Below are positions 6,166 through 45,842 of a stretch of 64,000 nucleotides of DNA, piece by piece. This stretch comes from Escherichia phage AV101. Location: sequence record OQ973471.1; one strand, written 5' to 3'. How positions within the stretch are numbered: the stretch's first letter is position 1; every line of letters starts with the position of its first letter. A program made the position numbers and the translations under genes. The notes beneath the pieces are model-generated. The model saw only the letters and a list, made by a program, of their open reading frames with translations, ran no database searches and was not told the origin of the DNA.

Positions 6166-6250
6166 AGCGATCCTCGGTTTGTGTTATAAGCAGGTTTTAT
6201 TATACGCCGCCCTCGTAGATTGAAGGCGGCGGGGAGTGTTGGTGAGTTAC

Positions 6251-7093: not shown

Positions 7094-7195
7094 GGGAACC
7101 TTCCTATATCTCAGGGTGTCATCACCTCTAATTAAGGTGACAACCCCAGCATACCTGGGGATTGGATAAAGAAAAGGCCGTTTCCGGCCTTTGAG

Positions 7196-7990: not shown

Positions 7991-8175
7991 AAGAAATACC
8001 TCCACAATGAATGCAGAGGTATTTAAAGTGAAAGTGAACTACTCGAGAAACTGAGGGAAAACTTTGTTCGGAATGTGGTCAGCAACCCAGAGAGCGCCTA
8101 AAGAGGATTGAATGGCTGCGATCTCCTCCCAAGACCTGATAGGGGGAGTTGTCTCCCCTATGTTACACGTCGGGA

Positions 8176-8664: not shown

Positions 8665-8830
8665 GATGTAATTCCTCATAATGTAGTTGGTTCATTTCAC
8701 TTTTCATTCGGCGGTGTGTTACCGCCCTATGTGAACTATAATAGTGTATCATTATTGAAGAGTAAAGTCTTTTTCAATAAATTTTTAAATAATTTTGAAG
8801 TATTTTAAAAGGCCTCATTCGACGAGGCCT
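8665..8830 (-). promoter_or_regulatory. Terminator plus sigma70-like early promoter and structured leader
   Basis: Hairpin AGGCCTC..GAGGCCT with T-run; TTTACT-17nt-TATTAT; leader hairpin GGCGGT..ACCGCC. Confidence 0.45.
8811..8830 (-). terminator. Rho-independent terminator
   Basis: AGGCCTC-GTCGAAT-GAGGCCT followed by TTTTAAAAT. Confidence 0.55.
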
Positions 8831-8858
8831 GGAGGGAGGTGATGTGAAGTAAAAAGTT

Positions 8859-9065
8859 TTAGCTCGGGCGAAATCTTACAAACTCGCGAGCCAATTCGGC
8901 CTGCTCAGCACTGATAGGAACTCCATGGAAGTCCACCTGACCATTCTTCCAGCCGTGGATGAAACTCGGAGACTCTTCCCCAGATAAGACATACCCCTCA
9001 CGAGATTTCAAGTACCCCCGCAAGATCTCTCCGTCGTCCAGTTTGTTCAGTTCTTCTAACGTCAT
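8859..9065 (-). CDS. Hypothetical small protein
   Basis: 68 aa ORF, ATGA overlap with primase stop, followed by terminator hairpin. Confidence 0.3.
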   Translation of the reverse strand: MTLEELNKLDDGEILRGYLKSREGYVLSGEESPSFIHGWKNGQVDFHGVPISAEQAELAREFVRFRPS

Positions 9066-10120
9066 CGCACTTTCCTCAGTTCAGCGAATTGTAATGATGC
9101 GGCCATACCTTGGTAAACGTTCTTGGCGATCAGCTTCAGGAGGTCTTGTATGGACATGTTGCCCTTTGATGGCATGACCATGTCGTTGATATCCTTCCAA
9201 GGAACGTCTGGTGGGAACAGTACAACCTTGACACCTTTATCTATCATCTTCTGAATACCGTCACACACCTGCGGGTTCCGGTACTGATTATCAGGGATAT
9301 AAATGTCGCCCTTCACGCTCAGTAGATCAGCATCGGCCGATGCAAGACAGTTGGGTAGGAACAGGCTGTCAATCGGACCTTCCACAACCAGCTTGGTCTT
9401 GTGAATGTTCACCCGGTCTTCACCATACACCTTAGTGTCTTCATCCTTGGGCTTGACTGTTGCGTAGCGCAGTGTCGCACTCTTGTCGAATGCACGCCCC
9501 TGAACGATCTTCATGCGACCATCCTGAGTCCAGAACGGAATCACCAGCCGCTCATCGTCGGGGATCTTCAGCTGCTTCTCAGGGTTCGTTTCGAACTGGA
9601 GTAGATCCTGGCGGAAGTGCTGTGTGTAATACAGGAGGGTCAAAGTGCTCTCCGGCAGTCCACGCCACTGTACGTACTGTCGAGCCTTATGGTCAGGCGG
9701 TAATAGATCAAGCCGTAGCATATTGCCGAGGAGGCTCTCGTCGCGTTTCGCCGCCACTGAGCCAATACGGGCGGTCTGTGTTAGCTTTGGTAACGGCTTC
9801 AGGGAAGGAAGTGGTCTGCCCGACGTATCACCCAGCAGACGGAACTTCTCCATGTTGTACTCTGTTGAGAGGCGTTCGTCGAACTTCTTCAGCCAGAACT
9901 CAAATGACCAGCCATTCATCTGGTTGCAGTTATGGCACTTGAACCGGAAGCAGTCATGATCCCGATCATAGAAGAAGTATCCACGGCGCTTGTTAGCAGA
10001 CTTCGTGGAGTCACCGCACAGAGGGCAACGGAAGTTCGCAACAGAACCCACGCGCTCCCACTTGAACTTGTCAAGGCGGGGCGACAAGTTGTTGATAAAT
10101 TGCTCGTCAAGAAATTTCAT
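9062..10120 (-). CDS. gp61: DNA primase, T4 gp61-like
   Basis: 352 aa, N-terminal zinc ribbon CPLCGDS...CHNC, length close to T4 gp61. Confidence 0.75.
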   Translation of the reverse strand: MKFLDEQFINNLSPRLDKFKWERVGSVANFRCPLCGDSTKSANKRRGYFFYDRDHDCFRFKCHNCNQMNGWSFEFWLKKFDERLSTEYNMEKFRLLGDTSGRPLPSLKPLPKLTQTARIGSVAAKRDESLLGNMLRLDLLPPDHKARQYVQWRGLPESTLTLLYYTQHFRQDLLQFETNPEKQLKIPDDERLVIPFWTQDGRMKIVQGRAFDKSATLRYATVKPKDEDTKVYGEDRVNIHKTKLVVEGPIDSLFLPNCLASADADLLSVKGDIYIPDNQYRNPQVCDGIQKMIDKGVKVVLFPPDVPWKDINDMVMPSKGNMSIQDLLKLIAKNVYQGMAASLQFAELRKVR

Positions 10121-12151: not shown

Positions 12152-14872
12152 TCAGATTTTAATCTGCATGTTGCCGCCCAGGGACTGCTCATACTCACTG
12201 TATGCGCTCTCCCCGTTGCTTGCAGCCCATTCGTCCGACTGCTGAGCACGAGCCAGAGTCATCAGGTTTGGTTCAGTCGGGTTGTATCCCTTGGACTTCG
12301 CATCCTGATACACGGTCTGCAGGTACTGGTTGGCACGGTCGATCTGCCCTTTGAACTCGCGGAAAGCCCCTTCGGTTGTGTTGCGGCGGAAGGTGATATC
12401 CCAATCGACGTTCAGGGTTTGCCCATCACGGCTTGCATAGATCTGCCAATCCAGGTCGCGACCTTTTGGAGCATTGTCGCGGATGGATCCGGCGTATGTC
12501 GCAAGGTCAACGCCAGTCTTCTTCGCAGTACTCGACTCTTTCTCCAGTCTCTCGGTTTCTTTGGACAGGATACCCAACATAAATTCATTAGTGCGGCGAT
12601 CCGCCATGTCGTACCCGCGCCAAAGGACTGAACCGTTGTCGTCAACAGAAATGTCGTCCAAGAATACTTGTTTCGGATTATGCGACGTGCTTTTCAGAGT
12701 TTGCATATTCCGAGATATCATTTCCATTTTAGAAGAAATTTCATCGATCACGGCCTGAACAATATCTTTCTTCAAAGTAAGTTCATATGTCTTCGGATTG
12801 TTCAGGGTACGACCTTTATTGGATACCATAGGCGTGATCGCCACTTTGCCTTTGTCGTAGTAATAGGTCACATTCGTGGTCAATACAGCACCATCATACT
12901 TCCCAGTTTTCGGGAAATTGACGCCAGACCAAGTGATGGACATACCGTTGACAGTCTCACCAAACACCATGGCGTTGCGTGGCATCTTCAGGGTTCCAGA
13001 GTTGACCAGATCAGCGCCTTGGGCATTCAGGTCGATAGAACCATAGATGGCCCCGGTAATACGATCTTTCAGCATCAGGGTCTTGTCGCCCTTCTCTGGG
13101 ATGATTTCCAGCGGGTGCTTGCCACGCGGAGGCTCTTTGATGAGTTCCAGCAGAGCAGTGTTCCCAGGCTTCACACGATTCAGGACAGCGTCGGACACTG
13201 TCAGAGTCCAGTTTGCGGTTTCCACATAACCCCAGCCCCGAGAACGGCGAATGGCTTTGATAGGATATGGAGCGCTTGTTGGCACTGCGCTAATTTCCCA
13301 TTTGCCAGTGTACTGGGTCTTGGCAACCTCAAAGATGGACGCAATTACCGCATTGGCGACGTCACGGGCGCTACCTTTGGCCACGTTCTCCTCTTCAGCA
13401 ATTTCGCTGAAAACTGAGTATTGAACGAAACCAGCGAGGACGTTTGTGAAGTTGACAACGATAACCAACCCGCCTGCCGTCGTGTAACGACCAGCGCCCA
13501 CGCGACGGATGTTTTCACCAGGAAGAATAGAAGTGTCCAGCCCAACGTTGGTATCAATGATACCCAGAACACGAGCGATGAAACCGCTGTCACGTAATTG
13601 ATCAACACTGGTTGCACTCTCGGTCGAATCCGATGCGGATTTAGACACTTTGTTCAACTTGATAGAGACAAGGGTTTCCCCGTTGACACCGATGATATCC
13701 CATTCAGTACCCTGCTCGTTCGAGGTGCGGGCAATCTTGCGCTTTGAATTGATGGCACCTTCGTAACGCCCGTTCTTGACCACAACAGAGGCAGTAGCAG
13801 CATCAGTAGCACTTGCTGCATTTGAAAAGTCTGGGTCAGAAATACTGATGTCGACGTCACCGTTTTGAGAACGCATGCGAACACCGTTTTTGAATCGTTC
13901 CACGTTTACTTCTCGAGCACCAAGTCGTTTGGCATCAATAACAGCAGTTCCAGAACCGATAATGTTGGCTGGGTTATTTCTGTCTGAACTGTTTTGAGAA
14001 CCTTTCCAAAATTTTGTGGACGCCGTGGTGAAATCATTCAGGATACTGATAGGGACTTGCGGTAATTTCAACTGACGAGCAATGAAATCAGCACTTTGCC
14101 CACGCACAGGTTTCTCATTCATGTATGCGCCAACATACACGCCCGGCTCATTGTAGTGGGGAGCGATATTTGCCGTGTTCATGCGGCCTCTCTCCTTACC
14201 AGCCCATAACAACATGGGCTGATCCCCGTTTGAAGTTAATTTCCATCCGTTGGAATTATCAACAGAAGATGACACACCCACATCCGGAGTATTGTTCTGA
14301 ACCGGAACGTCACCGACCTTGTCTGGATCATCCCAGGTGATACCCTGCATCTTCGGACCGTCGAATACCTGAGCCGGATCTTTACCCTTGCGGACCAGCC
14401 ACACATAACCACGGTCAGGGACAGGCGCGTAGGTCAGGTCCATGACATTCAGTTTCTGTTTCAGGCCGGACTGGCGGATGATCTTAGGAATCAGGGTCAT
14501 ACCGCGATCCAGCGCTTTCTTAGAGAAGTTGACAGCAAAGCCATCGATGGTCTTACCCAGAGGAGTCGCCATGAATTGTTTGGTCGCTTCGATCATGGAA
14601 GCGATAACGCGCATTGGGTTCTTGAAGCGAGCGATGGCGTCAGGATAGACGGAGCCGCGCTTCTGGCCGATGAAAACCTGACGAACACTCTTACCCAGCC
14701 CCTGAGGGGTATAGAACTGAATACGGTATTCCTTTTCATCTTCGTCGATGAAGGTGAAGAACACATCGCCTGCGTTCTTCTTGCCCATGGTCAGCTCATA
14801 CGGAGCGGAGTTGAACGCTTCGTCCAACTGATCTCTTTCCTGCATGAACTGGAGGAAACTTAGCTTTGACAT
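12152..14872 (-). CDS. Large hypothetical protein (906 aa), function unknown
   Basis: Long ORF; AGGAG RBS before ATG at 14872; no recognisable catalytic motif. Confidence 0.5.
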   Translation of the reverse strand: MSKLSFLQFMQERDQLDEAFNSAPYELTMGKKNAGDVFFTFIDEDEKEYRIQFYTPQGLGKSVRQVFIGQKRGSVYPDAIARFKNPMRVIASMIEATKQFMATPLGKTIDGFAVNFSKKALDRGMTLIPKIIRQSGLKQKLNVMDLTYAPVPDRGYVWLVRKGKDPAQVFDGPKMQGITWDDPDKVGDVPVQNNTPDVGVSSSVDNSNGWKLTSNGDQPMLLWAGKERGRMNTANIAPHYNEPGVYVGAYMNEKPVRGQSADFIARQLKLPQVPISILNDFTTASTKFWKGSQNSSDRNNPANIIGSGTAVIDAKRLGAREVNVERFKNGVRMRSQNGDVDISISDPDFSNAASATDAATASVVVKNGRYEGAINSKRKIARTSNEQGTEWDIIGVNGETLVSIKLNKVSKSASDSTESATSVDQLRDSGFIARVLGIIDTNVGLDTSILPGENIRRVGAGRYTTAGGLVIVVNFTNVLAGFVQYSVFSEIAEEENVAKGSARDVANAVIASIFEVAKTQYTGKWEISAVPTSAPYPIKAIRRSRGWGYVETANWTLTVSDAVLNRVKPGNTALLELIKEPPRGKHPLEIIPEKGDKTLMLKDRITGAIYGSIDLNAQGADLVNSGTLKMPRNAMVFGETVNGMSITWSGVNFPKTGKYDGAVLTTNVTYYYDKGKVAITPMVSNKGRTLNNPKTYELTLKKDIVQAVIDEISSKMEMISRNMQTLKSTSHNPKQVFLDDISVDDNGSVLWRGYDMADRRTNEFMLGILSKETERLEKESSTAKKTGVDLATYAGSIRDNAPKGRDLDWQIYASRDGQTLNVDWDITFRRNTTEGAFREFKGQIDRANQYLQTVYQDAKSKGYNPTEPNLMTLARAQQSDEWAASNGESAYSEYEQSLGGNMQIKI

Positions 14873-14947
14873 TTTATATCTCCTGATGGAATTATGACGG
14901 TTTCTTCTAATTAGCGAAACCAAAAGAGAGCCGAAGCTCCCCTTATC

Positions 14948-27723: not shown

Positions 27724-28406
27724 TCGTTCTCCTTCATCATATTGTCGCAGTCAACACGAGTCTGCTGGAGTTCGCGCGACATGCGAGGATCATCAAGGTT
27801 CACGCTCAGATTCGTGGACAGGTCTTTCAGACCGTTCTGAACCCTGTCTTCAAAGTAATAATCGTTCTCAACCAACCAGGCTCTGAGACCGAGAGCGCGA
27901 GTGCGCCATTCCTTCTTCAGGACGCGATCAGAGGTCTGCGTAGCGCTGTATTCGAATACTTTGATGCACTGGTTGCCATCGTTGATGAGGTTCAGGTGAC
28001 GGCGGCCTATCTGCACACCCTTCTGTAATGCCGGAGAAGGGAGCGAACGGCACTGTCTTACGGTCATTCGGCCTTGGGTGCCCATACGCCCAGTCATGAT
28101 TAAATCGCCAGCCTCCATGCCTCCACGGTTAAATTCGTCGTCATTGAGGTAGCCCTTGAGGTTATAGGCTCCCTGTTTGTAACGGTTGAACTCAATTCCG
28201 GCATTGACGACAGCGGTGAAGACGTTGCCTGTGTTCCAGAGTTCAGCGAAGTTCTCTATGGAACCGGACTTGTCGATGGCAACCGCCTGGGAGAACCCAG
28301 CACAATAGGAAAGGTCGGACCACAGTTTATCACCTGTGGAGTTCAGCTTGGCAGCGGCGGGTAATGCCAGACCAGCCAGCACAACCCCGAGGATTAAACG
28401 TTTCAT
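27720..28406 (-). CDS. Exported/periplasmic protein (228 aa) with N-terminal signal peptide or signal anchor
   Basis: MKRLILGVVLAGLALPAAA N-terminus; AAGGAG RBS. Confidence 0.5.
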   Translation of the reverse strand: MKRLILGVVLAGLALPAAAKLNSTGDKLWSDLSYCAGFSQAVAIDKSGSIENFAELWNTGNVFTAVVNAGIEFNRYKQGAYNLKGYLNDDEFNRGGMEAGDLIMTGRMGTQGRMTVRQCRSLPSPALQKGVQIGRRHLNLINDGNQCIKVFEYSATQTSDRVLKKEWRTRALGLRAWLVENDYYFEDRVQNGLKDLSTNLSVNLDDPRMSRELQQTRVDCDNMMKENE

Positions 28407-28485
28407 GGTGATTCTCCTTATTTCATTGGATGAAATGATAGGCGGCTCACCATGTTGAGTAAAGGGATTCAATAAACTATCGTAT

Positions 28486-28935
28486 TCAGAAACGGGTATC
28501 GCTGACCGTTCTGTATCGCACACCCTGAAACTGTTTAGCGAGTTTAACAAATTCCATCGCTGGCAAATCAACTTTGTAGACCTTCATGCGCTGTTTGCCG
28601 TCCATGTTCAACGCAGCGACAAATCGGTGAGAACCGTCAACAACGTAATTGTCAGAAGATACCCAAACTCGACCCATAGGTTTCTTATTTCTGATCTGCT
28701 TCATAATCTTCCAGACCTTCATTTTATTGATTTCGTTCTGGGTAAGACGAAGTATTTTGATGGGCACTTGCACAGCATCTATGGACACGCCGTTGTCTTC
28801 AAGATATTTGTGAAAATCTTCTTGTTTGTCGGCATCGATTTGTGGCATAGAAGAACGCGAAAGCCCGAGGTTCCCAACAGGAATCCTCAGGCCGTTAATG
28901 ATGTTCAACCAGTCAATAAAAGATGTAAGGAACAT
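28486..28935 (-). CDS. Hypothetical protein
   Basis: 149 aa ORF. Confidence 0.4.
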   Translation of the reverse strand: MFLTSFIDWLNIINGLRIPVGNLGLSRSSMPQIDADKQEDFHKYLEDNGVSIDAVQVPIKILRLTQNEINKMKVWKIMKQIRNKKPMGRVWVSSDNYVVDGSHRFVAALNMDGKQRMKVYKVDLPAMEFVKLAKQFQGVRYRTVSDTRF

Positions 28936-33644: not shown

Positions 33645-35309
33645 TCAGATTTGTGAGGCCAGTTCTGTCACCAGAGGAGCGGCACGGACACGCGCATCTT
33701 CCAGCGTTTGGGTGTTGAAGAACTCGCCATCACGATACACCAGCTGGTGCTGGTTGTCGGCGTCTTGCACCTGATCAAAGGTGATACCGTCAACCAACAC
33801 TAGTTTACCCTGAGAGTCTTTAATGACTTTAAGGAAACCACGCGCAGACTTTTTAGTCCCGCCTTTATCGGTCTTCGGCTCTTTGAAGATCTCACGGAAT
33901 TCACCGTTCACTTTACCAGCCGTGGCTTTCACTGCTGTGCCAGTACTGTCACGGGTGTTCATCTGGTAGGTGTAGGAACCGATACCGAACACCACGTTGA
34001 TGGAAGCGAAGTTCCGGTCAGCCAGACGGCTAAAGATCTGGTCTTCACGCGACAGGGTGATAGAATCACCGTAGATCAGGCCGATGTGCTCATCCAACAG
34101 GAAGTGCCCAGTTTCAGTCTGGGTGCCACCAAAGATCTCCCACAGGCGCTGGATAGAGCCGACCGCTTCTGAACGGCTGATGATATTACGGTCATCTGCC
34201 ATCAGAGAGTTGATCGTGCCTTCGCCTGTGATCAGGTGATAGGTGTTCGTCTCTTCGATGTGGATGACTTCGGTGCTGCTGGACACGCCGCTGATGTTCA
34301 GCGTAGCGCGGTCTTTGAACCCCTCGATACGGTAGCCGCCGACGATGTGCACAGGGTCACCAGAGTCAGGGCGGATCACGACTTTACCATTGCGCGCCAT
34401 GATAATGTCTTTCAGGCGAGGCAGATAGTCGTCGATGACCTGCCAGTAATCCCACGCATCAGACACGATGCTGACGATGCCATCAGGATACACGTCCTGC
34501 ACCAGGCGGCGGAAGGTTTCGAATTCGCCATCCTTCGTGCCCATACACATCACGGCGTGTTCGGTAGCCGCAACAGAACCAGCAACGACATAATCTTCGT
34601 CGATGTCTGCGCCATAATACTCTTCTACGAAGTCCAGGGCAGGGTTGGTGTCGGTGCCTTTGAAGAACACCAGATGACCGGAACCGGAAGACGCGGCGTC
34701 ATGCCACCCGCTCATACCACGGAAGGAGAAGTCGTGGCCTTGGTAGTCGATGAACCAATGGTCCGGTGATACTCCCGTAGCGAGGGCAGCTTTCACCATC
34801 AGTGCCTTGTAATGCAGAGCGATGGTGGCGTTCGTCATCGGCTTCCAGATCTCAGAGCTGAACACAGTCTCCAGATAGTTGGTCAGCCAGTAGAACTCCG
34901 GCAGGGTATTGAACATCACATACACCGGAACACCATACGGACACATGGTGCCTTCAGGCAGCGCACGGACTTCGATAGGCAGGTAGCCGAGGTCATGCAG
35001 GGCTTCAATATGCTCTGTGCCGACGCGGCCTGGACCCAGGACTTTGTTCATGCGACGGGCATACTTCTTCAGCACCTTGGTCTTCGGGCGCTGGAAGAAT
35101 GCTTCGTCAAACAGTTCGTGGAACCAGGTCATGAAGCCCTGGATACCCCAGACCACCACGCCGTTCTTCGGCAGGTGAGAGTTGAAAAGTTTGTTAGAGC
35201 GCGGAGTTCCGTTGGAGAACACCAGCTCACTGCCTTCAGGGAACTGATAGATGTGCCCCGATTTGTAGAAGTCGATCGCATGGATTGGGTCTAAGTGGCG
35301 CATGCTCAT
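33645..35309 (-). CDS. nadV: Nicotinamide phosphoribosyltransferase (NAMPT/NadV)-family enzyme; possibly a nicotinamide ADP-ribose transferase of an NAD+ reconstitution pathway
   Basis: 554 aa; N-terminal DFYKSGH motif and overall NAMPT-like layout; 4-bp overlap with Prs-like gene. Confidence 0.8.
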   Translation of the reverse strand: MSMRHLDPIHAIDFYKSGHIYQFPEGSELVFSNGTPRSNKLFNSHLPKNGVVVWGIQGFMTWFHELFDEAFFQRPKTKVLKKYARRMNKVLGPGRVGTEHIEALHDLGYLPIEVRALPEGTMCPYGVPVYVMFNTLPEFYWLTNYLETVFSSEIWKPMTNATIALHYKALMVKAALATGVSPDHWFIDYQGHDFSFRGMSGWHDAASSGSGHLVFFKGTDTNPALDFVEEYYGADIDEDYVVAGSVAATEHAVMCMGTKDGEFETFRRLVQDVYPDGIVSIVSDAWDYWQVIDDYLPRLKDIIMARNGKVVIRPDSGDPVHIVGGYRIEGFKDRATLNISGVSSSTEVIHIEETNTYHLITGEGTINSLMADDRNIISRSEAVGSIQRLWEIFGGTQTETGHFLLDEHIGLIYGDSITLSREDQIFSRLADRNFASINVVFGIGSYTYQMNTRDSTGTAVKATAGKVNGEFREIFKEPKTDKGGTKKSARGFLKVIKDSQGKLVLVDGITFDQVQDADNQHQLVYRDGEFFNTQTLEDARVRAAPLVTELASQI

Positions 35310-36160
35310 TTTACACGTCCTGTATTTTCAGTTTTGAAAGGAAGCCCGTCGGCGGTGATGTTCTCCCACCAGACAGTGTCGGCATACACAGCATCATAGA
35401 TCCCGTCGAAAACAGAGAGACCTTTGCTGAAGATGCCATGGGTAACGAAGAGCGTCATGTGCTTAGGCTTGTGCTTCTGAAGCTCTTTGCCTAACTCAAC
35501 GAACGTGCGCCCACCGTCGCAGATATCATCGACCACCACCAGATAGCGGTCTTTGATCAGTTCAGGGTTTGTAACACTCACCCCAATGATCTCACCAGTC
35601 TTGGTATCGCGGTTCTTATGGCCGTAGACAACAGGAACACCGTCCAACGATAGGCTGAGGGCTTCGGTCTTCTTAGTCGCGCCGCCGTCAGGAGCTACCA
35701 ACACAGCGTTGTTCCCACGGATGAACCAGCCCAGATACTGACGCACGATGTAATCTTGCGGGACAACATGAACGTTGTTGATCAGAGAAGACACAACATG
35801 GCTGTGAGGATCTTTGATTACCACGCGGTCAAAGTTCATGCTATTGATGAATTCAGCCGCCCACTTCACAGACAGAGGCTCACCGAAGTCACAATGGCGG
35901 TCCTGGCGAGCATACGGGAAGTAAGGGATATACGCATGGAATGTCGTCAGACGGTCCACGTTACTCAGACCACGAACGGCGTTTACCAGAAGCGCCAGCT
36001 CAATGAAGTCGGCTGATGATTTGATGTGAGCATCAATCACCACGTTCTGAACGTGGCCGATAGGGATACCAGACTTTTGGATCTTGATATGTTCCTCACC
36101 ACCTGGGAAGGTGAAGTGTTTGTAGAACACATCTTGGTCGTTCAATTTCAAACGAAACAT
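35306..36160 (-). CDS. prs: Ribose-phosphate pyrophosphokinase (Prs)-family enzyme; possibly an ADP-ribose pyrophosphokinase
   Basis: 284 aa; YFPYARQDR, DGGATKKT and VVVDDICDGGRT motifs of the Prs/PRTase fold. Confidence 0.8.
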   Translation of the reverse strand: MFRLKLNDQDVFYKHFTFPGGEEHIKIQKSGIPIGHVQNVVIDAHIKSSADFIELALLVNAVRGLSNVDRLTTFHAYIPYFPYARQDRHCDFGEPLSVKWAAEFINSMNFDRVVIKDPHSHVVSSLINNVHVVPQDYIVRQYLGWFIRGNNAVLVAPDGGATKKTEALSLSLDGVPVVYGHKNRDTKTGEIIGVSVTNPELIKDRYLVVVDDICDGGRTFVELGKELQKHKPKHMTLFVTHGIFSKGLSVFDGIYDAVYADTVWWENITADGLPFKTENTGRVK

Positions 36161-37673: not shown

Positions 37674-39692
37674 TTAGAACACAACTTTCACAGTGCGGTT
37701 GAACGAACCGCTCACCTTCACGAACACGTGGTTGCGTTGGGTGGTAGAGAAGCCCAGACCGGACAGCTGCTCAGTGCTTGGCTGTACTTTAATCTTACCA
37801 CCTAACATTTCAAAAACCTTGCGGTGTTTATCAAGTTCCGGCTTCAGATATTCGTTATAGAAACCACGGGTGCCGACAGGGTTAGCACAACCTTCCAGGA
37901 TGAAGAACACGTGCTTGTTGCCAGTCTGCTCGCCGTCCCAATGGTTTGGTGAGTTCAGAACCAGCTGTACCTTCTGGAAGACGGAGGTCTTGATGCCCCA
38001 GATTTCCTGAGAGCGAGCGTCGTCTTTCAGGGTAGAACGGATGTCTACCACTTGTCCAGCGCGGACATCAATCACAACAGCCAGAGTGCGATCTTTGTGC
38101 TTCAGGCCAGGATGCGAAAAACGCTTGGTCTGGCCTTTGTATTCAACTTCGATTTCGAAGCCCATATCACAGGTTTCACGCTGGCTGAAGTTAGTGACAT
38201 AGAACTCGTACAGACCATCACGCAGCTTGCGTTCATCGCTGAAGAAGATGTTCTCCACCGGACGGCGGTTTGGATCAATGCCGTCCATACCGTTCATGTC
38301 GATGTCTAGAGTTGCGCCAGTTGTCGAACGACGGTTGTGATAATACACGTGGTTGTGAAGAGGATCGTTCAGGCTCAGATCCAGGTCGTCGTTGTTATGC
38401 CAAGCCAGTGACACACGGAGGAAGCTGTCGACATTGCCGCCTGCGGTCTTCACGCGCTCTTTGATGGAGTCGGCCACTTCGCCATTGTACGACCAGCTGA
38501 AGCCGTTGTTCCACTTGAACAGGTTAGGAGCGCCTGCGGTGGCCGGAGCGATCAGGGACATCAGGTTGCCAATGTGAGAGTTTTCGACCAGCACTTCCAG
38601 GGAATGCGCCTTTGGCAACACGTTGGTCAGGAAGTCGTCGATCGTGATCTCTTCAACCTTGTCCAGGGACTTGGTCGGAGTCTTCACTTCAGACGCCAGC
38701 TGAGCAAACGGGTCCATCTTCTTCTGAGCTGCTAGGTCGGCGAACAGAACGTTGTTGATGGTCAGATCGTCATACACGGCATAACGGCGACCCAGTGAAT
38801 CAGTCAGACCCAGCGCTTCGACTTCTTTCTGCGCGTTTTCAATCATCGACTTCGTGACCAGCGCGGTTGGGCGCTTGTAGTTCGTCGGAGCGACTTTGGC
38901 TTCAAAGGACTTCACGGCGGTTTCCAGATCCCGACCTTCATTGAGGTCTACCAGCAGAGAGCCAATCACGGTATTACGAATGCCGTGAGGGGTATGACCG
39001 TTTGCACGGTAGCCAGTGCGCCAAGCCCACAGAGCGCGTTTCTCTTCTGCAGTTTGTTCGTACAGGGTCTTGTTCACCACGAACGCCTGCACTGCCGCTT
39101 TGTGCTCTTCACCGCGATACAGAGAATTCTGGTCAATCAATTCAAGAACGATTTCAGCCGATTCCAGAGACAGTTCACGCAGGCCGCGCTCAAACACTTC
39201 AATCGCCTGGCGGATTTCACCCTTCTTAGAAGCGATGGTATCTGCCCGCAGAACATAGCTGCTCAGCAGGTCGGTGTGGAAGTGGTTGTAGGTGCGGACA
39301 ATACCGTCTTTCATTTCGTGATTCGACCCAACACCAACTTTCTTGGTGTCGTTGAAGTACACATCGACGATTGCGTGCTGCTTAACATATGCTGACAGCG
39401 CCGCAGCGACAACGTCGTATTCGTTACCCAGCTGAATGTTATCCCAGATAGAGATCACGTTCAGGTCGGAGTCGATGGTGACCACACCGCCGATATTACG
39501 GATGAATTGTTTACAGCAGGTACAGTCGTGTTCGGTACGCTCACGATAAAGCGGGTTAGTGCCAGCAGGGAAAGAAGACAGATACAGATCCCACAGAGCA
39601 TCTTTATCGATGTTGGTCATGAACAGACCAGTTGCTGACATGGCCAGCACATTATTGTTTACGGCTACTGCGAAGGGCTTAAATTCTGACAT
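37674..39692 (-). CDS. Large hypothetical early protein (672 aa)
   Basis: Long ORF preceded by a hairpin and the conserved leader; no family recognised. Confidence 0.5.
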   Translation of the reverse strand: MSEFKPFAVAVNNNVLAMSATGLFMTNIDKDALWDLYLSSFPAGTNPLYRERTEHDCTCCKQFIRNIGGVVTIDSDLNVISIWDNIQLGNEYDVVAAALSAYVKQHAIVDVYFNDTKKVGVGSNHEMKDGIVRTYNHFHTDLLSSYVLRADTIASKKGEIRQAIEVFERGLRELSLESAEIVLELIDQNSLYRGEEHKAAVQAFVVNKTLYEQTAEEKRALWAWRTGYRANGHTPHGIRNTVIGSLLVDLNEGRDLETAVKSFEAKVAPTNYKRPTALVTKSMIENAQKEVEALGLTDSLGRRYAVYDDLTINNVLFADLAAQKKMDPFAQLASEVKTPTKSLDKVEEITIDDFLTNVLPKAHSLEVLVENSHIGNLMSLIAPATAGAPNLFKWNNGFSWSYNGEVADSIKERVKTAGGNVDSFLRVSLAWHNNDDLDLSLNDPLHNHVYYHNRRSTTGATLDIDMNGMDGIDPNRRPVENIFFSDERKLRDGLYEFYVTNFSQRETCDMGFEIEVEYKGQTKRFSHPGLKHKDRTLAVVIDVRAGQVVDIRSTLKDDARSQEIWGIKTSVFQKVQLVLNSPNHWDGEQTGNKHVFFILEGCANPVGTRGFYNEYLKPELDKHRKVFEMLGGKIKVQPSTEQLSGLGFSTTQRNHVFVKVSGSFNRTVKVVF

Positions 39693-39811: not shown

Positions 39812-40036
39812 TCAGACGATCTTACCACCGTCACAAGGCCGAGTATCACCGGAGTTGTATGCCAGCATCCCCTGCATCAACAAACGTCTTGGCCCAGAAA
39901 CTGATTTCTGTTTCCTCAACGTACTGCAGAACCGAGTAGTGCCTGGGTAAGGAGTGTACACGAGACGACCTTGCATACGAGCTTCCAGTAGGAATTCATC
40001 TGTGGCTTTGCGTAACTTGAATAATTTCCAGCTCAT
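39812..40036 (-). CDS. Hypothetical small protein downstream of HNH endonuclease
   Basis: 74 aa, ATGA overlap with HNH gene stop. Confidence 0.3.
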   Translation of the reverse strand: MSWKLFKLRKATDEFLLEARMQGRLVYTPYPGTTRFCSTLRKQKSVSGPRRLLMQGMLAYNSGDTRPCDGGKIV

Positions 40037-40962
40037 TTTTCACCCTTGTATCTTTTTAACCATTTGACGCATTTTAATGGTTCCCACCCTTTATTGAAAC
40101 GTTCGATAATGCTGTTTGTCGCATTAAAAGCCTTCAAATCCTTTGTTCCGTACACATGCATGAGGGCTTCCGCTCTTTTCATCGTCTTCAAAGATTGCAT
40201 AAGCAAATCAGCTTTTGACCAATACACATCATTTTCGGGGTTCCATTTCGCTTTCTCCCAAGGCAACTTCACTAACATACCTTTCTGGGCGTTTTCTTTC
40301 TGTTTGGCTCGTTGTTCCGGTGTGAAAGAATTGGTTAAGTCCTTCCCATAATTGGGATTGAGTTTCCCGAGTTTTGCTTGTCTAGAACGCTCCGAAAATT
40401 GCTTCAAATCTGTATTGGCGCGACGCCGCTCTAAAACCTGCCTTTTATATTCAGGGTCAGAAGCCATTCTTTCATGGATTTTCATCAATCCTTTGGTAAT
40501 TTTCTTGACTTGCTCTGGAGTTCTCTTATATCCATATTGGGGGTTATTCTTTCCTCTCCTTCCGTACATTGGGTTGTCTTTACCCACAAACCGAGAAACC
40601 CCTTTCCATTGTAAAGATAGTTGTTCGCTGAATTTAATTCTGAAACTTTCATATAAATGAGAATTAAACCGAATCCCCGATTTATTTCTTCTTCCCCCCT
40701 TTCTCATAGCCACCACAGCATACACCATTCTCGTGTTTGGGAAAGCCAATGCCAAGCACAAATGCACAAGATAATGTTGCCTGCCTGTTAATCGAACCAA
40801 ATTGTTCTTATCTTTAAAATATTCAGGGAACATGCTCTTGGGAAGGATGTGGTGTAATTCAGTGTAGTCACCATCAGAATATTTGAAAGATTGAACCATC
40901 CTCAAATACTTCTTGATGAAATGCGGTTTACCGCCTTTAGAAACCAACAATTCATAAAACAT
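40033..40962 (-). CDS. HNH homing endonuclease with NUMOD-like repeats
   Basis: ELHHILPKS...NLVRLTGRQHYLVH HNH motif; basic Lys/Arg-rich repeats; AT-rich relative to neighbours; RBS in hairpin. Confidence 0.75.
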   Translation of the reverse strand: MFYELLVSKGGKPHFIKKYLRMVQSFKYSDGDYTELHHILPKSMFPEYFKDKNNLVRLTGRQHYLVHLCLALAFPNTRMVYAVVAMRKGGRRNKSGIRFNSHLYESFRIKFSEQLSLQWKGVSRFVGKDNPMYGRRGKNNPQYGYKRTPEQVKKITKGLMKIHERMASDPEYKRQVLERRRANTDLKQFSERSRQAKLGKLNPNYGKDLTNSFTPEQRAKQKENAQKGMLVKLPWEKAKWNPENDVYWSKADLLMQSLKTMKRAEALMHVYGTKDLKAFNATNSIIERFNKGWEPLKCVKWLKRYKGEK

Positions 40963-40993
40963 AACAGGAACTCCAAAAATGAAAGTTCCTGTT
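40963..40993 (-). promoter_or_regulatory. Stem-loop partly sequestering the RBS of the HNH endonuclease gene
   Basis: AACAGGAACT-loop-AGTTCCTGTT 10-bp stem with GGAG at loop/stem junction, directly 5' of ATG 40962. Confidence 0.5.
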
Positions 40994-41023
40994 ATAATAT
41001 ACTTTGTTAACTCACAAAGTAAG

Positions 41024-42223
41024 TTACTTTTTAAATAAATTTAGCAGGTTTTTAGAACCAGATGTCGTCGCTTTAGGTTGTCCTTCCCCATCGTAACCAA
41101 CCTTCCCGCGCGGTTTTTTGCCTTGGTTGACGGCTTCTACACAACGGGTATATTTCGACAATTCACAAAAGTGGTTCTCTAATTGTTGAACATTCATACA
41201 CTGATCCCAAGGCTCTTCGGCCGACCAAAATTCTTCCCTGTTATACCCAAGAGGACCATAAACTGCGTCCTGATTATCCCGTAGCCAGAAGATGCATTCT
41301 TCGTGGGTCATACCGTCTTTGTTCAGGAACATCAGGTCGATGCCTGCGCGACAGCCTGGTCCAGCAACCGTGAAGTGGTTCTCGCTGAAAGGATATCCAG
41401 GAATGTACGTGAAATCAACCCAGATCTGATAGGCCAGGAATGGACCAAGCCCTTCGATGTCGTCATACATGCGCTGGTATACTTCCAGAGGAGTACCAAG
41501 GCGCAGCAAGTCATGGAAATAGTTTGGATACTTGTTGACGAATGCCTTCAGAGAACGGATAACACGCATCGGCATGTATGGTTCCCATCCCTCGATGGTA
41601 TATTCACCAGGATTCTCTTCGACCAGCTTTTTGGCGACCTTGTAGTCCATCTCGTCCACAATACCCTGGCCAACGCGATACACTTTCACCATCATCCCAC
41701 CGAAGCACTGCTCCTTGTGGTTGACAACCATCTCAGGGAAAGCCAGGCATTGCTTCAGGCCGCCCGTGTTGAAGGCATTGGTGAATACCTTACCACCGTC
41801 GGCCTCGAACTTCTGAAGTCGTTCGCGGGTTGCATCGAGGTTGATCTCGGCGAATTCTTTGATCGTCATCGCGCCGCCGATAGCCTGGATTGGATCCCAG
41901 AGGTTGAACATGCGGAACATCACGCAGTTGAACATCTTGTCGGCCATACCCAGAGCATCGTTGTTGACGATGTTGTTGATCAGGTTGAGAGACTGTCTGT
42001 CGTGCTCTCTCCGGACGTTACAGAATTTAACCTGGCGTAGTATGGGATTATCAGTCCAAGGAGCAGGAAGGCGCTGGACGTCCTTCTTGACGTGGATCTG
42101 ATAACGATCGCGCATCCATTCGTAAGACAGGCTGGTATGGGTCGGACTGAGAACCGGTTTGGCCGACTTTATCTTTTCTTCACGGACACCGCAGTACGGG
42201 ACGTCCAGGGCTTTATCTTTCAT
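41024..42223 (-). CDS. Hypothetical protein (399 aa), possible nucleotide/DNA-metabolism enzyme
   Basis: Long ORF between HNH gene and MazG-like gene; no motif recognised. Confidence 0.45.
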   Translation of the reverse strand: MKDKALDVPYCGVREEKIKSAKPVLSPTHTSLSYEWMRDRYQIHVKKDVQRLPAPWTDNPILRQVKFCNVRREHDRQSLNLINNIVNNDALGMADKMFNCVMFRMFNLWDPIQAIGGAMTIKEFAEINLDATRERLQKFEADGGKVFTNAFNTGGLKQCLAFPEMVVNHKEQCFGGMMVKVYRVGQGIVDEMDYKVAKKLVEENPGEYTIEGWEPYMPMRVIRSLKAFVNKYPNYFHDLLRLGTPLEVYQRMYDDIEGLGPFLAYQIWVDFTYIPGYPFSENHFTVAGPGCRAGIDLMFLNKDGMTHEECIFWLRDNQDAVYGPLGYNREEFWSAEEPWDQCMNVQQLENHFCELSKYTRCVEAVNQGKKPRGKVGYDGEGQPKATTSGSKNLLNLFKK

Positions 42224-42291
42224 GGTATCCTCTTAGAATACGAAAACAGAGGCCATTATAGCCTCTGTTGTTTAGTGAATAACCGTATATC

Positions 42292-43164
42292 TTAATCGAT
42301 ACGGGTCAGTTGGGTGATAGATGATTGCACTGGGCTGGCCACATAGATACGGACGTTGGCTTTCCATTCACCCCAGATCAACGGCAGAGTTGGGAAGTTG
42401 TCTTCATTGAAAACAAACACGGGAATGTAGCTCTCGACTGTTTCGCCAGAGAACGCCTGAAAGCCCATCTTGGTGTATCCCATGATCTCGTCAATAAAAT
42501 CGAACGGAGCGAAGGCAACACCAGCGTGTTCGTTAGAACCGAGCTGGCCTGGAATGGCCGTGCCCGTCAGAATGATTTCGGTGATCTGGCGCTTAGGCTC
42601 GGTGGTCAACATATCAGAGAAGTCAGGCTCTTTGAAGGTTGCCATGTTCTTCAGGAACTTGCCAGCCGGGTACTCTTTGCCGTCGACAGTGATGGTGTCC
42701 ACCACTTTGATGCACGCCTGAGGGAATTCCCCTTCGATGCGTAGACTTTCGCGTGGGAATCCTTTGTTATAGTAATACTCCAGCGCTGGAACAACTTCAC
42801 CTTCATTGCGAACGAACTTGCTCATGTTAGAGGCATACACGCGTTGTAGGCATTCGTCACCGTCGAAACCAGCAATATGAGCCACACCGTCGTTGACAGT
42901 GGTGATGTCGCCCTGGGCATCCATGATCTGGCGCATAATGTCTTTGATGTCGACAACAACGGGTTCTTTCAGGACTCGCGGAGATGCAGTGAACTCAATT
43001 TTCACCTCGTGGTCGAAATACACCGCTTCCAGCAGTTCACGGGTTTCTTCCAGCACCAGTTTCGCCTGATTGCGGATCTTACCAAAGTCAGGCGATGTGA
43101 CGTCGCCCTTTGCATTACCGAAAGCCAGATTCAGATTCACGTTCTTAGAAAATGTAGTTGTCAT
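42292..43164 (-). CDS. Hypothetical protein with possible MazG-like NTP pyrophosphohydrolase N-terminal domain
   Basis: LEETRELLEA ... AQGDITTV ... DECLQRV pattern resembling MazG/dCTPase fold; weak. Confidence 0.35.
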   Translation of the reverse strand: MTTTFSKNVNLNLAFGNAKGDVTSPDFGKIRNQAKLVLEETRELLEAVYFDHEVKIEFTASPRVLKEPVVVDIKDIMRQIMDAQGDITTVNDGVAHIAGFDGDECLQRVYASNMSKFVRNEGEVVPALEYYYNKGFPRESLRIEGEFPQACIKVVDTITVDGKEYPAGKFLKNMATFKEPDFSDMLTTEPKRQITEIILTGTAIPGQLGSNEHAGVAFAPFDFIDEIMGYTKMGFQAFSGETVESYIPVFVFNEDNFPTLPLIWGEWKANVRIYVASPVQSSITQLTRID

Positions 43165-43180: not shown

Positions 43181-43645
43181 TTATTCGCTTTTTGCCTTCG
43201 TAGGCCGGATGATGTATTTTGGAACCAGCTTCCATTCAGGAACCTGATCGTGTTTAACCACTTTAATGCGAGACATATCGGCTGCTTCGGTGACCTGCTC
43301 AGGATGAATGACCTTCACCATGTTCCACTGCTCCAGCAGCTTGATGATTCGGTTCATCCTCAGGACATCTTCGCGGTTAAATCCGTTGTAATGCCCGTCC
43401 AGCATAAATAGATGCTTAAAGTGGACGATATAATACTTGCCGCACTTATGAAGAATATGGCAAGTTTGATACAGAGTATTCGGCTCTTGGCGCGTGTTTA
43501 CCCCAATTCGACTCAGTGTTTCCTTGATCCCCAGGAATATACCTGGCCGATCTTGGTTCAATTGAACTTCAACCATACAATCAACGATGCTGGCCTCATC
43601 GTTGACTGCTGAAATATTCAATATGTCTAGCGTATTACGCGCCAT
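43181..43645 (-). CDS. regA: Translational repressor RegA
   Basis: KETLSRIGV...LYQTCHILHKCGKYYIVHFK...EWKLVPKYIIR matches T4 RegA. Confidence 0.8.
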   Translation of the reverse strand: MARNTLDILNISAVNDEASIVDCMVEVQLNQDRPGIFLGIKETLSRIGVNTRQEPNTLYQTCHILHKCGKYYIVHFKHLFMLDGHYNGFNREDVLRMNRIIKLLEQWNMVKVIHPEQVTEAADMSRIKVVKHDQVPEWKLVPKYIIRPTKAKSE

Positions 43646-43674: not shown

Positions 43675-44097
43675 CTACTTAGCCTTGCGCGGTTTCGCTT
43701 TGGCGTTCAGCTCAGTGCGTCTCATCTTCTCGCGTATCTCGGCCAGGACTTCCTTCGGCAAGAAACGGACGTACTCCGATGCCTTCTCCATGCTGATGTA
43801 GAAGTACTCTGAGAGTAACTTCACGTCAGGATCAATCGGACCTTTCTTAGACCATTTGTCGTAGCGTTTCCGAGCCGGAATGGTGTAAAAGGCATATGAC
43901 CATTGCATCCATGGAGTGATAGCATGTAGCTTATTCATCTGTTGCGCAGCCACTAGAGTGTCTTTGCTCTGAGCTAAACCACGCCGCGTCATAAACGGGT
44001 CGAATCCTTTCAACACTTCTGGGTCATCAGACCGCAAAAGGTTTTCTTTGCTGCTGTTCAGAGCAGACAGGTAATCGAACAATCCAAGGGCGGCCAT
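43675..44097 (-). CDS. gp62: Clamp-loader small subunit (T4 gp62-like)
   Basis: PARKRYDKWSK resembles T4 gp62 PRGKRYGKWAK; position between gp44 and regA. Confidence 0.6.
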   Translation of the reverse strand: MAALGLFDYLSALNSSKENLLRSDDPEVLKGFDPFMTRRGLAQSKDTLVAAQQMNKLHAITPWMQWSYAFYTIPARKRYDKWSKKGPIDPDVKLLSEYFYISMEKASEYVRFLPKEVLAEIREKMRRTELNAKAKPRKAK

Positions 44098-44101
44098 AAT
44101 A

Positions 44102-45091
44102 TCACTTCCACTTGATGTTGAGCATGACATTGGTCAGGAAAAACACAGCATGCAGCCAGACATCGCCGACTTGACGGTGTTCAATCTGAGACTGACCACA
44201 TACGCATACTAGATCAGGGATAGACTCATTCTGAACCAACATTTGCTTCTCTTTATCCTGTGGTACACAGAACTGGAAGAAGCGGGAATAGAAGTCTTCA
44301 GTGATATAGTTCTGGTTGTCGGTCACCCACTGCTTCATCCCAGCCCAGTCATTATCCTTCAACATATTCACCAACATGCCCATATCGGCCGATTTTAACA
44401 CAGCCAGTGCACGTTCGTCGATCTTGCCGTAAGTGGTGACGTTATCCTGTAGAACACCCATGATGCGGCGGTTATCAGGGAAATGGCGCTTGACAATAGC
44501 AGCCAACACAGGAGGGTCATACTCAACACCTTCGCAGCGAAGGATTTCAGCACAGCGGCGCATGAACTGAAGTTTGACCTCATCAGCCTCGGTCTCATTC
44601 CAGATAAAGTCGATTTCACGGCAACGAGAGCGCAGAGGTTCGTTCACACGTTGCTTGGCGTTGGTGGTCAAGATGAATGAACAGTTCTTGGAGACCTTCT
44701 CCACAATACCCTTCAGCGACTCCTGTGCCGCCATAGACAGACGCTCTACTTCGTCGAGGATAACGACTTTGCGGCCACCGAATACGCTCACACCAGTAGA
44801 GTACTGAATCACGCGGTCACGGATAACGTCGATGCTGTTGTCCAGGGATGCGTTGATCATCAGTGGTTGCTTACAACCGATTTCATTACACACGGCCAGG
44901 GCGGAGGTAGTCTTGCCAGTACCAGGCTGAGGAGAGTAGAACAGCATAGACGGGATGTTGCCGTTGCCGCTGGTGATGTAGCCATGGATTTTAGCGCGGA
45001 CGTCTTGAGGGATGATAATCTCGTCCAGGTTGTCAGGGCGGTACTTGTTTTCCCATGCGTACTGGTCGGAAACGATAGTGATATTAGACAT
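44102..45091 (-). CDS. gp44: Clamp-loader large subunit, AAA+ ATPase (T4 gp44-like)
   Basis: Walker A PQPGTGKTT, DEVERL box, sensor motifs. Confidence 0.8.
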   Translation of the reverse strand: MSNITIVSDQYAWENKYRPDNLDEIIIPQDVRAKIHGYITSGNGNIPSMLFYSPQPGTGKTTSALAVCNEIGCKQPLMINASLDNSIDVIRDRVIQYSTGVSVFGGRKVVILDEVERLSMAAQESLKGIVEKVSKNCSFILTTNAKQRVNEPLRSRCREIDFIWNETEADEVKLQFMRRCAEILRCEGVEYDPPVLAAIVKRHFPDNRRIMGVLQDNVTTYGKIDERALAVLKSADMGMLVNMLKDNDWAGMKQWVTDNQNYITEDFYSRFFQFCVPQDKEKQMLVQNESIPDLVCVCGQSQIEHRQVGDVWLHAVFFLTNVMLNIKWK

Positions 45092-45173: not shown

Positions 45174-45842
45174 TTACTCAATCTGTGCGCCGACGAAGTA
45201 ATTGATCGTCGCGTCGGATGATTGGAAGTTCACCATTTGTAGATCAGCACATGCACGCAGAGTGTAGTTGCCTTCGATCATTTTCAGGTTGGCAACATCC
45301 AGTGGCATTACGAAGTCCGGCAGCGCGGTTTCGCCCAGCTCAACAGTGTAGTTGTTGGAGTTGTCCAGGGTAGTGGTGGTTGCAACCAGGCGAGTTTTGC
45401 CACCCTGAGCAACCAGGCGCACAGTCTTGTGTCCGAGGGTAGAACAGGCGCGGGTCAGTTCTTTCATCTTCTCTGGAGTGATGATCGCTTCAAAGTCGAC
45501 AGACGGCAGTTCAATAGTATCAGCCGGGACAACCGTGAGTTCTTTAGCAGAACGCCAGAATTGCAGCTGAGAACTTTCGCCTTTCAACAGGATGTAGTCC
45601 TGATGGAATTCGGCTTTGGCACCTTTGAAGGAAGGTAGGCGCTGGATGGCCAGAAGTTTGGTCAGGTCCAGAATCGGGAACTCAAACGGGAAGTCTTCTT
45701 CGATCTGCGCCACGGCGATCACAGTAGAAGAATCATTAATACTGCGCAGCATCTTGCCCGGTGTCAGAACGATAGATGGGTTGATGGTCTCAAAGTTGGC
45801 CAGCAACTGAAGTGTACGTTCGGAGAGAGTGATCTCTTGCAT
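45174..45842 (-). CDS. gp45: Sliding clamp (T4 gp45-like)
   Basis: 222 aa; N-terminus LLANFETINPSI resembles T4 gp45 LLKNFATINSGI; upstream of gp44. Confidence 0.75.
   Translation of the reverse strand: MQEITLSERTLQLLANFETINPSIVLTPGKMLRSINDSSTVIAVAQIEEDFPFEFPILDLTKLLAIQRLPSFKGAKAEFHQDYILLKGESSQLQFWRSAKELTVVPADTIELPSVDFEAIITPEKMKELTRACSTLGHKTVRLVAQGGKTRLVATTTTLDNSNNYTVELGETALPDFVMPLDVANLKMIEGNYTLRACADLQMVNFQSSDATINYFVGAQIE

Follow-up and report, generated by a model that had tools for sequence, protein, structure and literature searches.

On the T4 map, gene 43 adjoins regA. Which genes, then, take this place in a phage that has the preceding 45-44-62-regA block and no recognisable polymerase gene beside it? 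The question is raised by Escherichia phage AV101 (sequence record OQ973471.1), of which a stretch of 64,000 nucleotides (nt), hereafter the window, was analysed. A first-pass annotation had described two unassigned genes next to regA, encoding proteins of 399 amino acids (aa; positions 41024-42223) and 290 aa (42292-43164), as occupying the position of the DNA polymerase gene. The coordinates of both open reading frames (ORFs) proved exact, with the two lying on the (-) strand, and the 45-44-62-regA order is real, all four genes being identified by Pfam. Taken together, our results make it likely that the two ORFs are a family-conserved pair following 45-44-62-regA, in which the 399-aa protein, a member of the Pfam family PF18723, is a candidate for base modification and the 290-aa protein a nucleoside triphosphate (NTP) pyrophosphohydrolase, and that the polymerase is encoded elsewhere.

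The gene pair next to regA is a trait of the family

ORFs were called on the window, and the large ORFs were then matched against Pfam and PHROGs. Across the region, the DNA is 95% identical to that of Escherichia phage vB_EcoM-RPN242 (Ackermannviridae, Aglimvirinae). The matching phage records number 279, nearly all of them carrying the names of enterobacterial hosts (Salmonella, Klebsiella, Escherichia, Dickeya and others). The order regA, MazG-like gene, gp160-like gene is identical in ViI, SJ3 and RPN242. We assign the window to a ViI-like phage (Ackermannviridae, Agtrevirus-type) and both ORFs to the conserved genes of this family.

Neither of the two ORFs, nor any of the large ORFs in the window, was assigned to a polymerase family by Pfam or PHROGs, and the annotations of RPN242 and ViI show no polymerase over the matching stretches. 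This agrees with the first-pass annotation, which had seen no family-B polymerase motifs in the pair and no polymerase in the window. The polymerase of ViI is Vi01_190 (145128-148124), about 57 kb from regA (89605-90069) and near the genes of the 5-hydroxymethyldeoxyuridine (5-hmdU) kinase gp243 and the transferase gp247. Given this distance and the same layout in ViI, the departure from the T4 gene order is a trait of the whole family, and there has been no local replacement of a polymerase gene by the pair, as the earlier wording had implied. That the two proteins replace the polymerase, or constitute a divergent one at the T4 gene-43 position, is suggested by nothing other than their place beside regA. 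The confident non-polymerase families and folds of both proteins, together with the normal polymerase Vi01_190 elsewhere in the ViI genome, refute this idea and leave it a negligible probability.

The slot next to regA is, judging from gene assignments in several phages, repeatedly taken by nucleotide or DNA-modification genes in phages that build their DNA from 5-hmdU triphosphate (5-hmdUTP). In Acinetobacter phage SH-Ab 15599 (Ackermannviridae; hereafter 15599), a characterised Pplase2/amino-acid:DNA transferase (ADDT) gene directly follows regA (3922-5251 of the examined stretch). In Pseudomonas phage Cygsa01 (phiW-14-like; 359-4483), the 45-44-62-regA genes are followed by one opposite-strand ORF and a 176-aa homolog of the N-terminal domain of the 290-aa protein, and the linkage between regA and the NTP pyrophosphohydrolase therefore extends beyond the Ackermannviridae.

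The 399-aa protein is the counterpart of ViI gp160

The 399-aa protein matches PF18723 (HMUDK_hel, formerly aGPT-Pplase1) over residues 30-365 with an E-value of 2.6e-79 (267 bits, cutoff 25). It also matches PHROG 2396 and is 81% identical over its full length to Vi01_130c of ViI (YP_004327501). Since the record of the latter notes orf00160 and the 'gp' numbers follow the orf numbers, Vi01_130c corresponds to gp160 of Lee et al. In that study, gp160 was listed as 'aG/PT-PPlase1', a paralog of gp247 with a predicted DNA-glycosylase fold, and its lysate was among five that were jointly sufficient to make 5-(2-aminoethoxy)methyldeoxyuridine (5-NeOmdU) (Lee et al. 2018, PMC5889632). Later work attributed roles to the kinases gp67 and gp243, the serine:DNA transferase gp247 and the pyridoxal phosphate (PLP)-dependent decarboxylase gp226 of ViI, and gave none to gp160 (Lee et al. 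2021, PMC8989533). The genes for the dUMP hydroxymethylase, the 5-hmdU DNA kinase(s) and ADDT are encoded in the relative ViI and lie outside the AV101 window. About 40% of T is replaced by 5-NeOmdU in relatives of AV101 (PMC5889632). Because the modified nucleoside was demonstrated there, the liquid chromatography with mass spectrometry (LC-MS) of virion DNA that had been proposed for AV101 has in effect been done, on these relatives.

The description of the two genes as unassigned holds in part for the 399-aa gene, whose public labels are mostly 'hypothetical protein' and in some cases '5-hmdU DNA kinase helical domain-containing protein' or 'aGPT-Pplase clade 1'. It does not hold for the 290-aa gene, which is publicly labelled MazG-like pyrophosphatase or NTP pyrophosphohydrolase. 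The name aGPT-Pplase1 for the 399-aa family also appears in some GenBank records, and the SW16-7 genome paper lists an ortholog under it (PMC10458263). Both genes are already known from databases and from the literature, though with no reaction proven for either. The first-pass suggestion that they may be nucleotide-pool or DNA-modification enzymes is borne out by the orthology of the 399-aa protein to gp160 and by the all-alpha NTP pyrophosphohydrolase domain of the 290-aa protein.

According to Pfam, PF18723 includes gp160, PaMx11 gp50, the C-terminal half of SP10 gp186, a protein of phage IME392, Microbacterium phage gene 56 and 15599 Orf49, while PaMx11 gp46 and ViI gp247 belong to PF18724 (ADDT). 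The 15599 member (8961-9926 of the examined stretch) is a clear match to PF18723 (E = 6e-40) immediately upstream of the dUMP hydroxymethylase gene, and the 2026 paper on this phage does not list Orf49 among the pathway enzymes. Escherichia phage vB_EcoM_IME392 carries a putative thymidine-modification cluster of unusual content (799-9495 of the examined stretch), comprising a BCCT-family transporter, a PIG-L-type deacetylase, two uncharacterised proteins, a PF18723 protein, a P-loop protein, a thymidylate-synthase homolog and an HD 5'-deoxynucleotidase. Pfam gave no ADDT match within this cluster, an absence that hints at a different modification chemistry. A separate observation concerns the ViI kinase gp67 (Vi01_061c, 28203-28865 of the examined stretch), which matches PF18748 (E = 3e-116) and is annotated 'terminase small subunit' in RefSeq and GenBank. 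The same label also overlaps matches of the PF18723 query in a few Klebsiella and Pseudomonas phage records, and looks like a propagated mis-annotation.

PF18723 shares a predicted active site with amino-acid:DNA transferases

The 399-aa protein adopts in its structural model a helix-hairpin-helix (HhH) DNA-glycosylase-like fold, in agreement with the prediction of Iyer et al. 2013 and Lee et al. 2018. Using profile-profile alignment (hhalign), we compared 28 PF18723 sequences with 36 ADDT sequences and obtained a score of 34.3 over 127 collinear columns. The corresponding controls reached 16.9 (reversed alignment), 15.7 (unrelated alignment) and at most 22.7 (30 block shuffles). On this comparison, the 399-aa protein is a distant homolog of the amino-acid:DNA transferases (PF18724, ADDT/Pplase2). 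Direct searches did not detect the relationship: the 399-aa protein had no match to PF18724 at E <= 0.01 and no direct sequence match to ViI gp247, and the PF18723 profile matched none of the PDB chains, PUGT included. A MAFFT alignment of gp46 and gp247 alone misaligned the catalytic motif and was not used as a search query.

The aligned columns include the predicted active-site helix. The segment GLGPFLAYQ..VD of the 399-aa family is paired with the FGPWIGFKVADMVD motif of PaMx11 gp46, NVQQLENHFCELSKY is paired with NIQEVETILCKWKSH, and residues E349, N350 and C353 fall on E243, T244 and C247 of gp46. In gp46 (PUGT), the metal bound by E243 and T244 contacts the O4 atom of the flipped base, and nucleophilic attack on C6 comes from C247 (PMC11472151). 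In PF18723, E349, C353, E354 and K357 stay invariant, and N350 nearly so, even when members of about 23% identity (PaMx11 gp50 and the C-terminus of SP10 gp186) are included; R72, D75 and D270 are also invariant at 23% identity. Because the equivalents of the two metal ligands and of the catalytic cysteine of gp46 are kept, the 399-aa protein is probably an active enzyme. For PF18723 proteins in general, we infer enzymes that flip the base and activate a 5-substituted uracil through a cysteine and a metal as ADDT does, using a different second substrate.

Candidate reactions of the 399-aa protein

We ranked three roles for the 399-aa protein, with the conversion of 5-phosphomethyl-dU (5-PmdU) to thymidine as the most attractive, a second transferase next and a non-catalytic kinase adaptor third. 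For the first, the protein would act on a 5-substituted deoxyuridine, most likely the 5-PmdU that the 5-hmdU DNA kinases of the phage produce, and flip it out of the duplex. Addition of Cys353 to C6 and departure of the phosphate would give an exocyclic methylene at C5, which would be resolved with a partner other than serine. In our preferred and speculative version, this intermediate is reduced to thymidine, which would explain how about 60% of the T positions end as canonical T. PF18723 proteins, among them gp160 and its 399-aa ortholog, would then be a post-replicative 'DNA thymine synthase', turning 5-hmdU (as 5-PmdU) into thymidine by an ADDT-like Cys-C6 Michael addition and reduction; stated in such detail, the proposal is unlikely.

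The distribution of the family is consistent with this role. PF18723 is present in every characterised lineage that turns 5-hydroxymethyluracil (hmU)-containing DNA into T plus hypermodified T (phiW-14 gp72, M6 gp55, PaMx11 gp50, SP10 gp186C, nACB2 and 15599 Orf49), usually with its gene close to a kinase or dUMP hydroxymethylase gene. A DNA thymine synthase would explain why PF18723 accompanies the dUMP hydroxymethylase in every such phage group. In pelagiphages, PF18723 is paired with a thymidylate-synthase homolog (PMC9599517). The conversion of 5-hmdU to thymidine was described as 'still unknown' by Lee et al. 2018 (PMC5889632), and the 2026 dapT paper, on a phage in which 77% of T positions are dT, proposes no enzyme for thymidine formation. 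Pplase2 given 5-PmdU and borohydride yields thymidine (PMC8989533), and a hydride or some equivalent reductant is therefore all that the chemistry requires.

A number of points weigh against an ADDT-like reaction and against thymidine as its product. The homology between PF18723 and ADDT is weak (HHalign probability 21%), the match of the active sites comes from a profile alignment and not from superposed structures, and the residues of the co-substrate/phosphate pocket of gp46 are not conserved in PF18723: D175 of gp46 aligns with a glycine, and the pocket residues K261 and D262 fall in a deletion. No PF18723 member has a demonstrated activity to date, and each step towards 5-NeOmdU was demonstrated using purified kinase, gp247 and gp226 and no gp160 (PMC8989533). 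The 399-aa protein has no evident redox-cofactor domain that could supply the hydride, and SP10 gp185 and the uncharacterised proteins of the IME392 cluster, examined for an ADDT-like or cofactor domain, yielded neither. Finally, no ADDT is detectable in SP10 (PMC5889632 Table 3; our search gave no match in a Bacillus phage), and the PF18723 domain may itself be the glutamyl transferase in this phage.

This last point bears on the second role, in which the 399-aa protein would be another group-transferase (the 'aGPT-Pplase clade 1' idea) that uses a different nucleophile or sequence context and makes a minor or redundant modification rather than thymidine. SP10 makes alpha-glutamyl-T with PF18723 present and ADDT not detected (PMC5889632 Table 3), the predicted catalytic apparatus is common to ADDT and the 399-aa protein, and PF18723 lies near a thymidylate-synthase homolog in pelagiphages and Microbacterium phages, with no ADDT annotated in the viewed stretch or mentioned in the paper. 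ViI and its relatives, however, show a single extra nucleoside by LC-MS, which is explained by gp247 and gp226 (PMC5889632, PMC8989533), and no second adduct has been reported in them. We regard a second transferase as possible, though doubtful.

In the third role, the protein would be no enzyme but a helical partner of the 5-hmdU DNA kinases, serving in DNA binding or targeting, and would choose the sites to be phosphorylated and thereby set the level of modification at about 40%. It is suggested by the Pfam name 'kinase helical domain', by HhH being a DNA-binding fold, and by the gene neighbourhoods: in SP10 gp186 the PF18723 domain and the kinase are one protein, in PaMx11 the PF18723 gene (gp50) comes immediately after that of the kinase (gp49), and in IME392 it lies beside a P-loop protein. 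The dispensability of gp160 for making 5-NeOmdU in vitro (PMC8989533) would fit as well. However, the aligned catalytic cysteine and metal ligands, and the polar residues that stay invariant at 23% identity (E349, C353, E354, K357, R72, D75 and D270), are unexpected for a pure adaptor. Moreover, the SP10 kinase domain is active alone (PMC8989533), and the gene adjoins neither kinase gene in ViI-like phages. A purely adaptor function is decidedly unlikely.

The glycosylase-like fold brings up a conventional base-excision DNA glycosylase that removes, for example, U, T or 5-hmU from host or phage DNA. We found no Pfam HhH-GPD match, the residues that are invariant across the family fit the Cys/metal site of a transferase and not the Asp/Lys of a glycosylase, and an enzyme excising 5-hmU or T would attack the phage's own DNA. 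This function is very improbable, and the conversion of 5-PmdU to thymidine remains our preferred, if speculative, proposal for the 399-aa protein.

The 290-aa protein contains an all-alpha NTP pyrophosphohydrolase domain

A possible MazG-like N-terminal domain had been noted in the 290-aa protein, and residues 1-190 indeed form a domain of the DR2231/MazG type. The protein is 59% identical to Vi01_131c of ViI and 100% identical to a protein recorded for Escherichia phage AV101, and a search of 1.8 billion representative proteins returned 250 relatives; beyond the three closest, and among the matches listed, these align within about residues 1-190. In an alignment of 45 sequences, E40, E43, D82, D86, G93, K169 and K172 are invariant, and the acidic metal-binding motifs E39-E40-x-x-E43 (EExxE) and D82-x-x-x-D86 are intact. 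Pfam assigned 28 of the 45 homologs to PRA-PH and 15 to MazG. The family profile matches DR2231 with an E-value of 3.9e-9, and the fold of the N-terminal domain agrees with the all-alpha NTP pyrophosphohydrolase (NTP-PPase) superfamily (MazG/DR2231/PRA-PH). From this conservation, we confidently assign the 290-aa protein as an NTP pyrophosphohydrolase. It would hydrolyse one or more (d)NTPs to the monophosphate and pyrophosphate (PPi), and would thereby shape the nucleotide pool for 5-hmdUTP-based replication.

Three observations count against this assignment or the suggested role. The 290-aa protein itself passes no Pfam threshold, with no Pfam match even at E <= 1. Its N-terminal domain is found at about 50% identity in N4-like phages (Schitoviridae), whose DNA is not known to be hmU-based. 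Among phage dTTPases/dUTPases of the pathway, 15599 gp18 alone has been characterised, and it belongs to another family, dUTPase_2.

The C-terminal domain has a narrower distribution. A 105-residue query against phage records matched 272 of them, only as the C-terminus of this Ackermannviridae gene. The domain is 31-38% identical to the Kuttervirus copies, is absent from the 187-aa versions of Serratia phages and from the N4-like homologs, and models poorly, with a predicted local distance difference test (pLDDT) score of 42-74.

A more specific possibility is that the 290-aa protein is the dTTPase/dUTPase of the pathway, which would clear dTTP, leaving 5-hmdUTP as the sole form incorporated, and would supply the dUMP hydroxymethylase with dUMP made from dUTP. 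By sequence, the solved protein closest to it is DR2231, a dUTP-specific MazG-like enzyme. The gene is also kept at or near regA in two 5-hmdUTP lineages, abutting regA in the Ackermannviridae and lying one ORF from it in a phiW-14-like phage, and dTTPase activity has been documented in phiW-14 infection (cited in PMC13458397). However, the characterised gp18 of 15599 bears no resemblance to the 290-aa family, a dUTPase_2 gene is present in ViI itself next to dnk and the genes of the hydroxymethylase and the kinase gp67, and the N4-like homologs at about 50% identity speak against a pathway-specific enzyme. We consider this assignment tentative and rather unlikely. A homology of the 290-aa protein to gp18 was rejected, as hhalign gave a probability of about 0.1% against both gp18 and its ViI counterpart orf00063. 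The 290-aa protein had no Pfam match to PF08761 (dUTPase_2), and no relation to two other NTP-PPase-like genes of ViI was detectable.

Organisation of the region

The genes form a tight ORF array on the (-) strand at 41-46 kb of the window (Table 1). In relatives, the gp62-like gene is annotated from a later start, as 141 aa long. The 290-aa gene begins 16 nt past the regA stop codon and has its own GGAG Shine-Dalgarno sequence, so the two genes are probably co-transcribed. A spacer of 68 nt separates the 290-aa and 399-aa genes and contains a stem-loop, after which come a weak T-tail, the Shine-Dalgarno sequence AAGAGGA and the ATG of the 399-aa gene. The stem-loop possibly acts in attenuation or in RNA stability. 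Across the region, sigma-70 promoter-like sites showed no excess over shuffled sequence.

Table 1 Features of the regA region in the AV101 window and of the two proteins encoded after regA
Feature	Position	Strand	Details
gp45-like sliding clamp	45174-45842	(-)	Pfam gp45-slide_C; same annotation in RPN242, SJ3 and ViI
gp44-like clamp-loader AAA+ subunit	44102-45091	(-)	Pfam AAA and Gp44_lid
gp62-like clamp-loader A subunit	43675-44130	(-)	Pfam Phage_clamp_A, E = 1.7e-10
regA translational repressor	43181-43645	(-)	Pfam PF01818, E = 2.1e-34
Predicted NTP pyrophosphohydrolase gene, 290 aa	42292-43164	(-)	phrog_2144 MazG-like pyrophosphatase, E = 8e-132
DR2231/MazG-type all-alpha NTP-PPase domain, residues 1-190	42595-43164	(-)	E40, E43, D82, D86, K169 and K172 invariant
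C-terminal domain of the 290-aa protein, residues 191-290	42295-42594	(-)	fast-evolving, predicted beta-rich
11-bp stem-loop in the 68-nt spacer	42245-42269	(-)	AACAGAGGC-TATAAT-GGCCTCTGTT
PF18723 protein gene, 399 aa, ViI gp160 ortholog	41024-42223	(-)	Pfam PF18723
Helix-hairpin-helix-like motif DIEGLGPFLAYQIWVDFTY, residues 255-273	41405-41461	(-)	F262, Y265 and D270 invariant
Predicted active-site helix ENHFCELSK, residues 349-357	41153-41179	(-)	E349, C353, E354 and K357 invariant, N350 nearly
HNH/NUMOD3 homing endonuclease	40033-40962	(-)	variable downstream neighbour, outside the gene pair

The homing-endonuclease gene downstream of the pair is present in RPN242, phiD3 and SJ3 and apparently absent from ZQ1, A221, PC3 and others, since the matches of the latter begin about 190 nt into the query. 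A 15-bp hairpin (40960-40996, (-) strand) ends in the ATG of this ORF, and its start codon and ribosome-binding region are probably sequestered by the hairpin.

Three further loci of the window, all on the (-) strand, were recorded. Genes for a nicotinamide/nicotinate phosphoribosyltransferase (33645-35309) and a ribose-phosphate pyrophosphokinase (35306-36160) share a 4-nt overlap; this NAD+-salvage pair is reported to vary among Agtrevirus phages and has been tied to the countering of NAD+-depleting defence systems (PMC11721090). An ORF of 923 aa (12152-14923) has no Pfam match and matches PHROG 3867 (787 positions) in two stretches; it may carry an insertion of about 120 aa relative to its 799-aa ViI ortholog. 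A conserved protein of 672 aa (37674-39692; PHROG 1735, no Pfam match) is encoded by one ORF here and by two coding sequences (Vi01_128c and Vi01_129c) in ViI.

Significance

What this analysis adds is the predicted conservation of the active site between PF18723 and a structurally solved amino-acid:DNA transferase, and the finding, by profile comparison, that the 290-aa protein falls outside the known dTTPase/dUTPase family. Among the gene families of thymidine-hypermodification clusters still without an assigned reaction, PF18723 is the most widespread, and the question of how 5-hmdU becomes thymidine dates to the classical work on phiW-14 and SP10. The predicted cysteine/metal site offers a concrete, testable handle in C353, E349 and N350. 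These genomes have three all-alpha NTP-PPase genes, of which the 290-aa gene is one, and knowing its substrate would help to define how dTTP and dUTP are cleared. As it stands, the finding is a routine annotation with some remaining biochemical interest, which would rise only if PF18723 does convert hmU to thymidine.

Comparison with known systems

The 45-44-62-regA block is common to T4 (45-44-62-regA-43) and this phage. In the Ackermannviridae, unlike T4, gene 43 is not adjacent to the block, and the slot holds the NTP-PPase and PF18723 genes or, in phage 15599, an ADDT gene.

DR2231 of Deinococcus radiodurans (PDB 2yeu and others) and Exig_1061 (3nl9) are, like the 290-aa protein, MazG-like all-alpha NTP pyrophosphohydrolases. 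Compared with them, the 290-aa protein adds an insert of about 25 residues (about 49-72), a beta-hairpin extension (GKxYPxGKFLK) and the 100-residue C-terminal domain. The bifunctional dTTPase/dUTPase gp18 of 15599 (PMC13458397) is likewise a member of the all-alpha NTP-PPase superfamily from a phage of the Ackermannviridae with hmU-derived DNA. It consists, however, of a dUTPase_2 domain and a dNMP-kinase-like domain, and it is orf00063, not the 290-aa gene, that corresponds to it in ViI.

For the 399-aa protein, the closest known system is ViI gp160, which has the same position after regA and the MazG-like gene and belongs to the same family, PF18723. The two differ in length (407 aa in ViI, 399 aa here) and in their divergent last ~30 residues, and otherwise in nothing of substance. 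The ADDT proteins (PaMx11 gp46/PUGT, PDB 8z2m; ViI gp247; M6 gp51; 15599 DADT) form a separate Pfam family, and the 399-aa protein is about 100 residues longer. SP10 gp186C, PaMx11 gp50, M6 gp55, phiW-14 gp72 and 15599 Orf49 share the PF18723 family and the same invariant residues with the 399-aa protein, but are only ~22-25% identical to it. Each of them comes from a phage in which 5-hmdU is processed after replication. While these other copies are fused to, or lie near, a kinase or dUMP hydroxymethylase gene, the AV101 copy is located in the replication operon beside regA.

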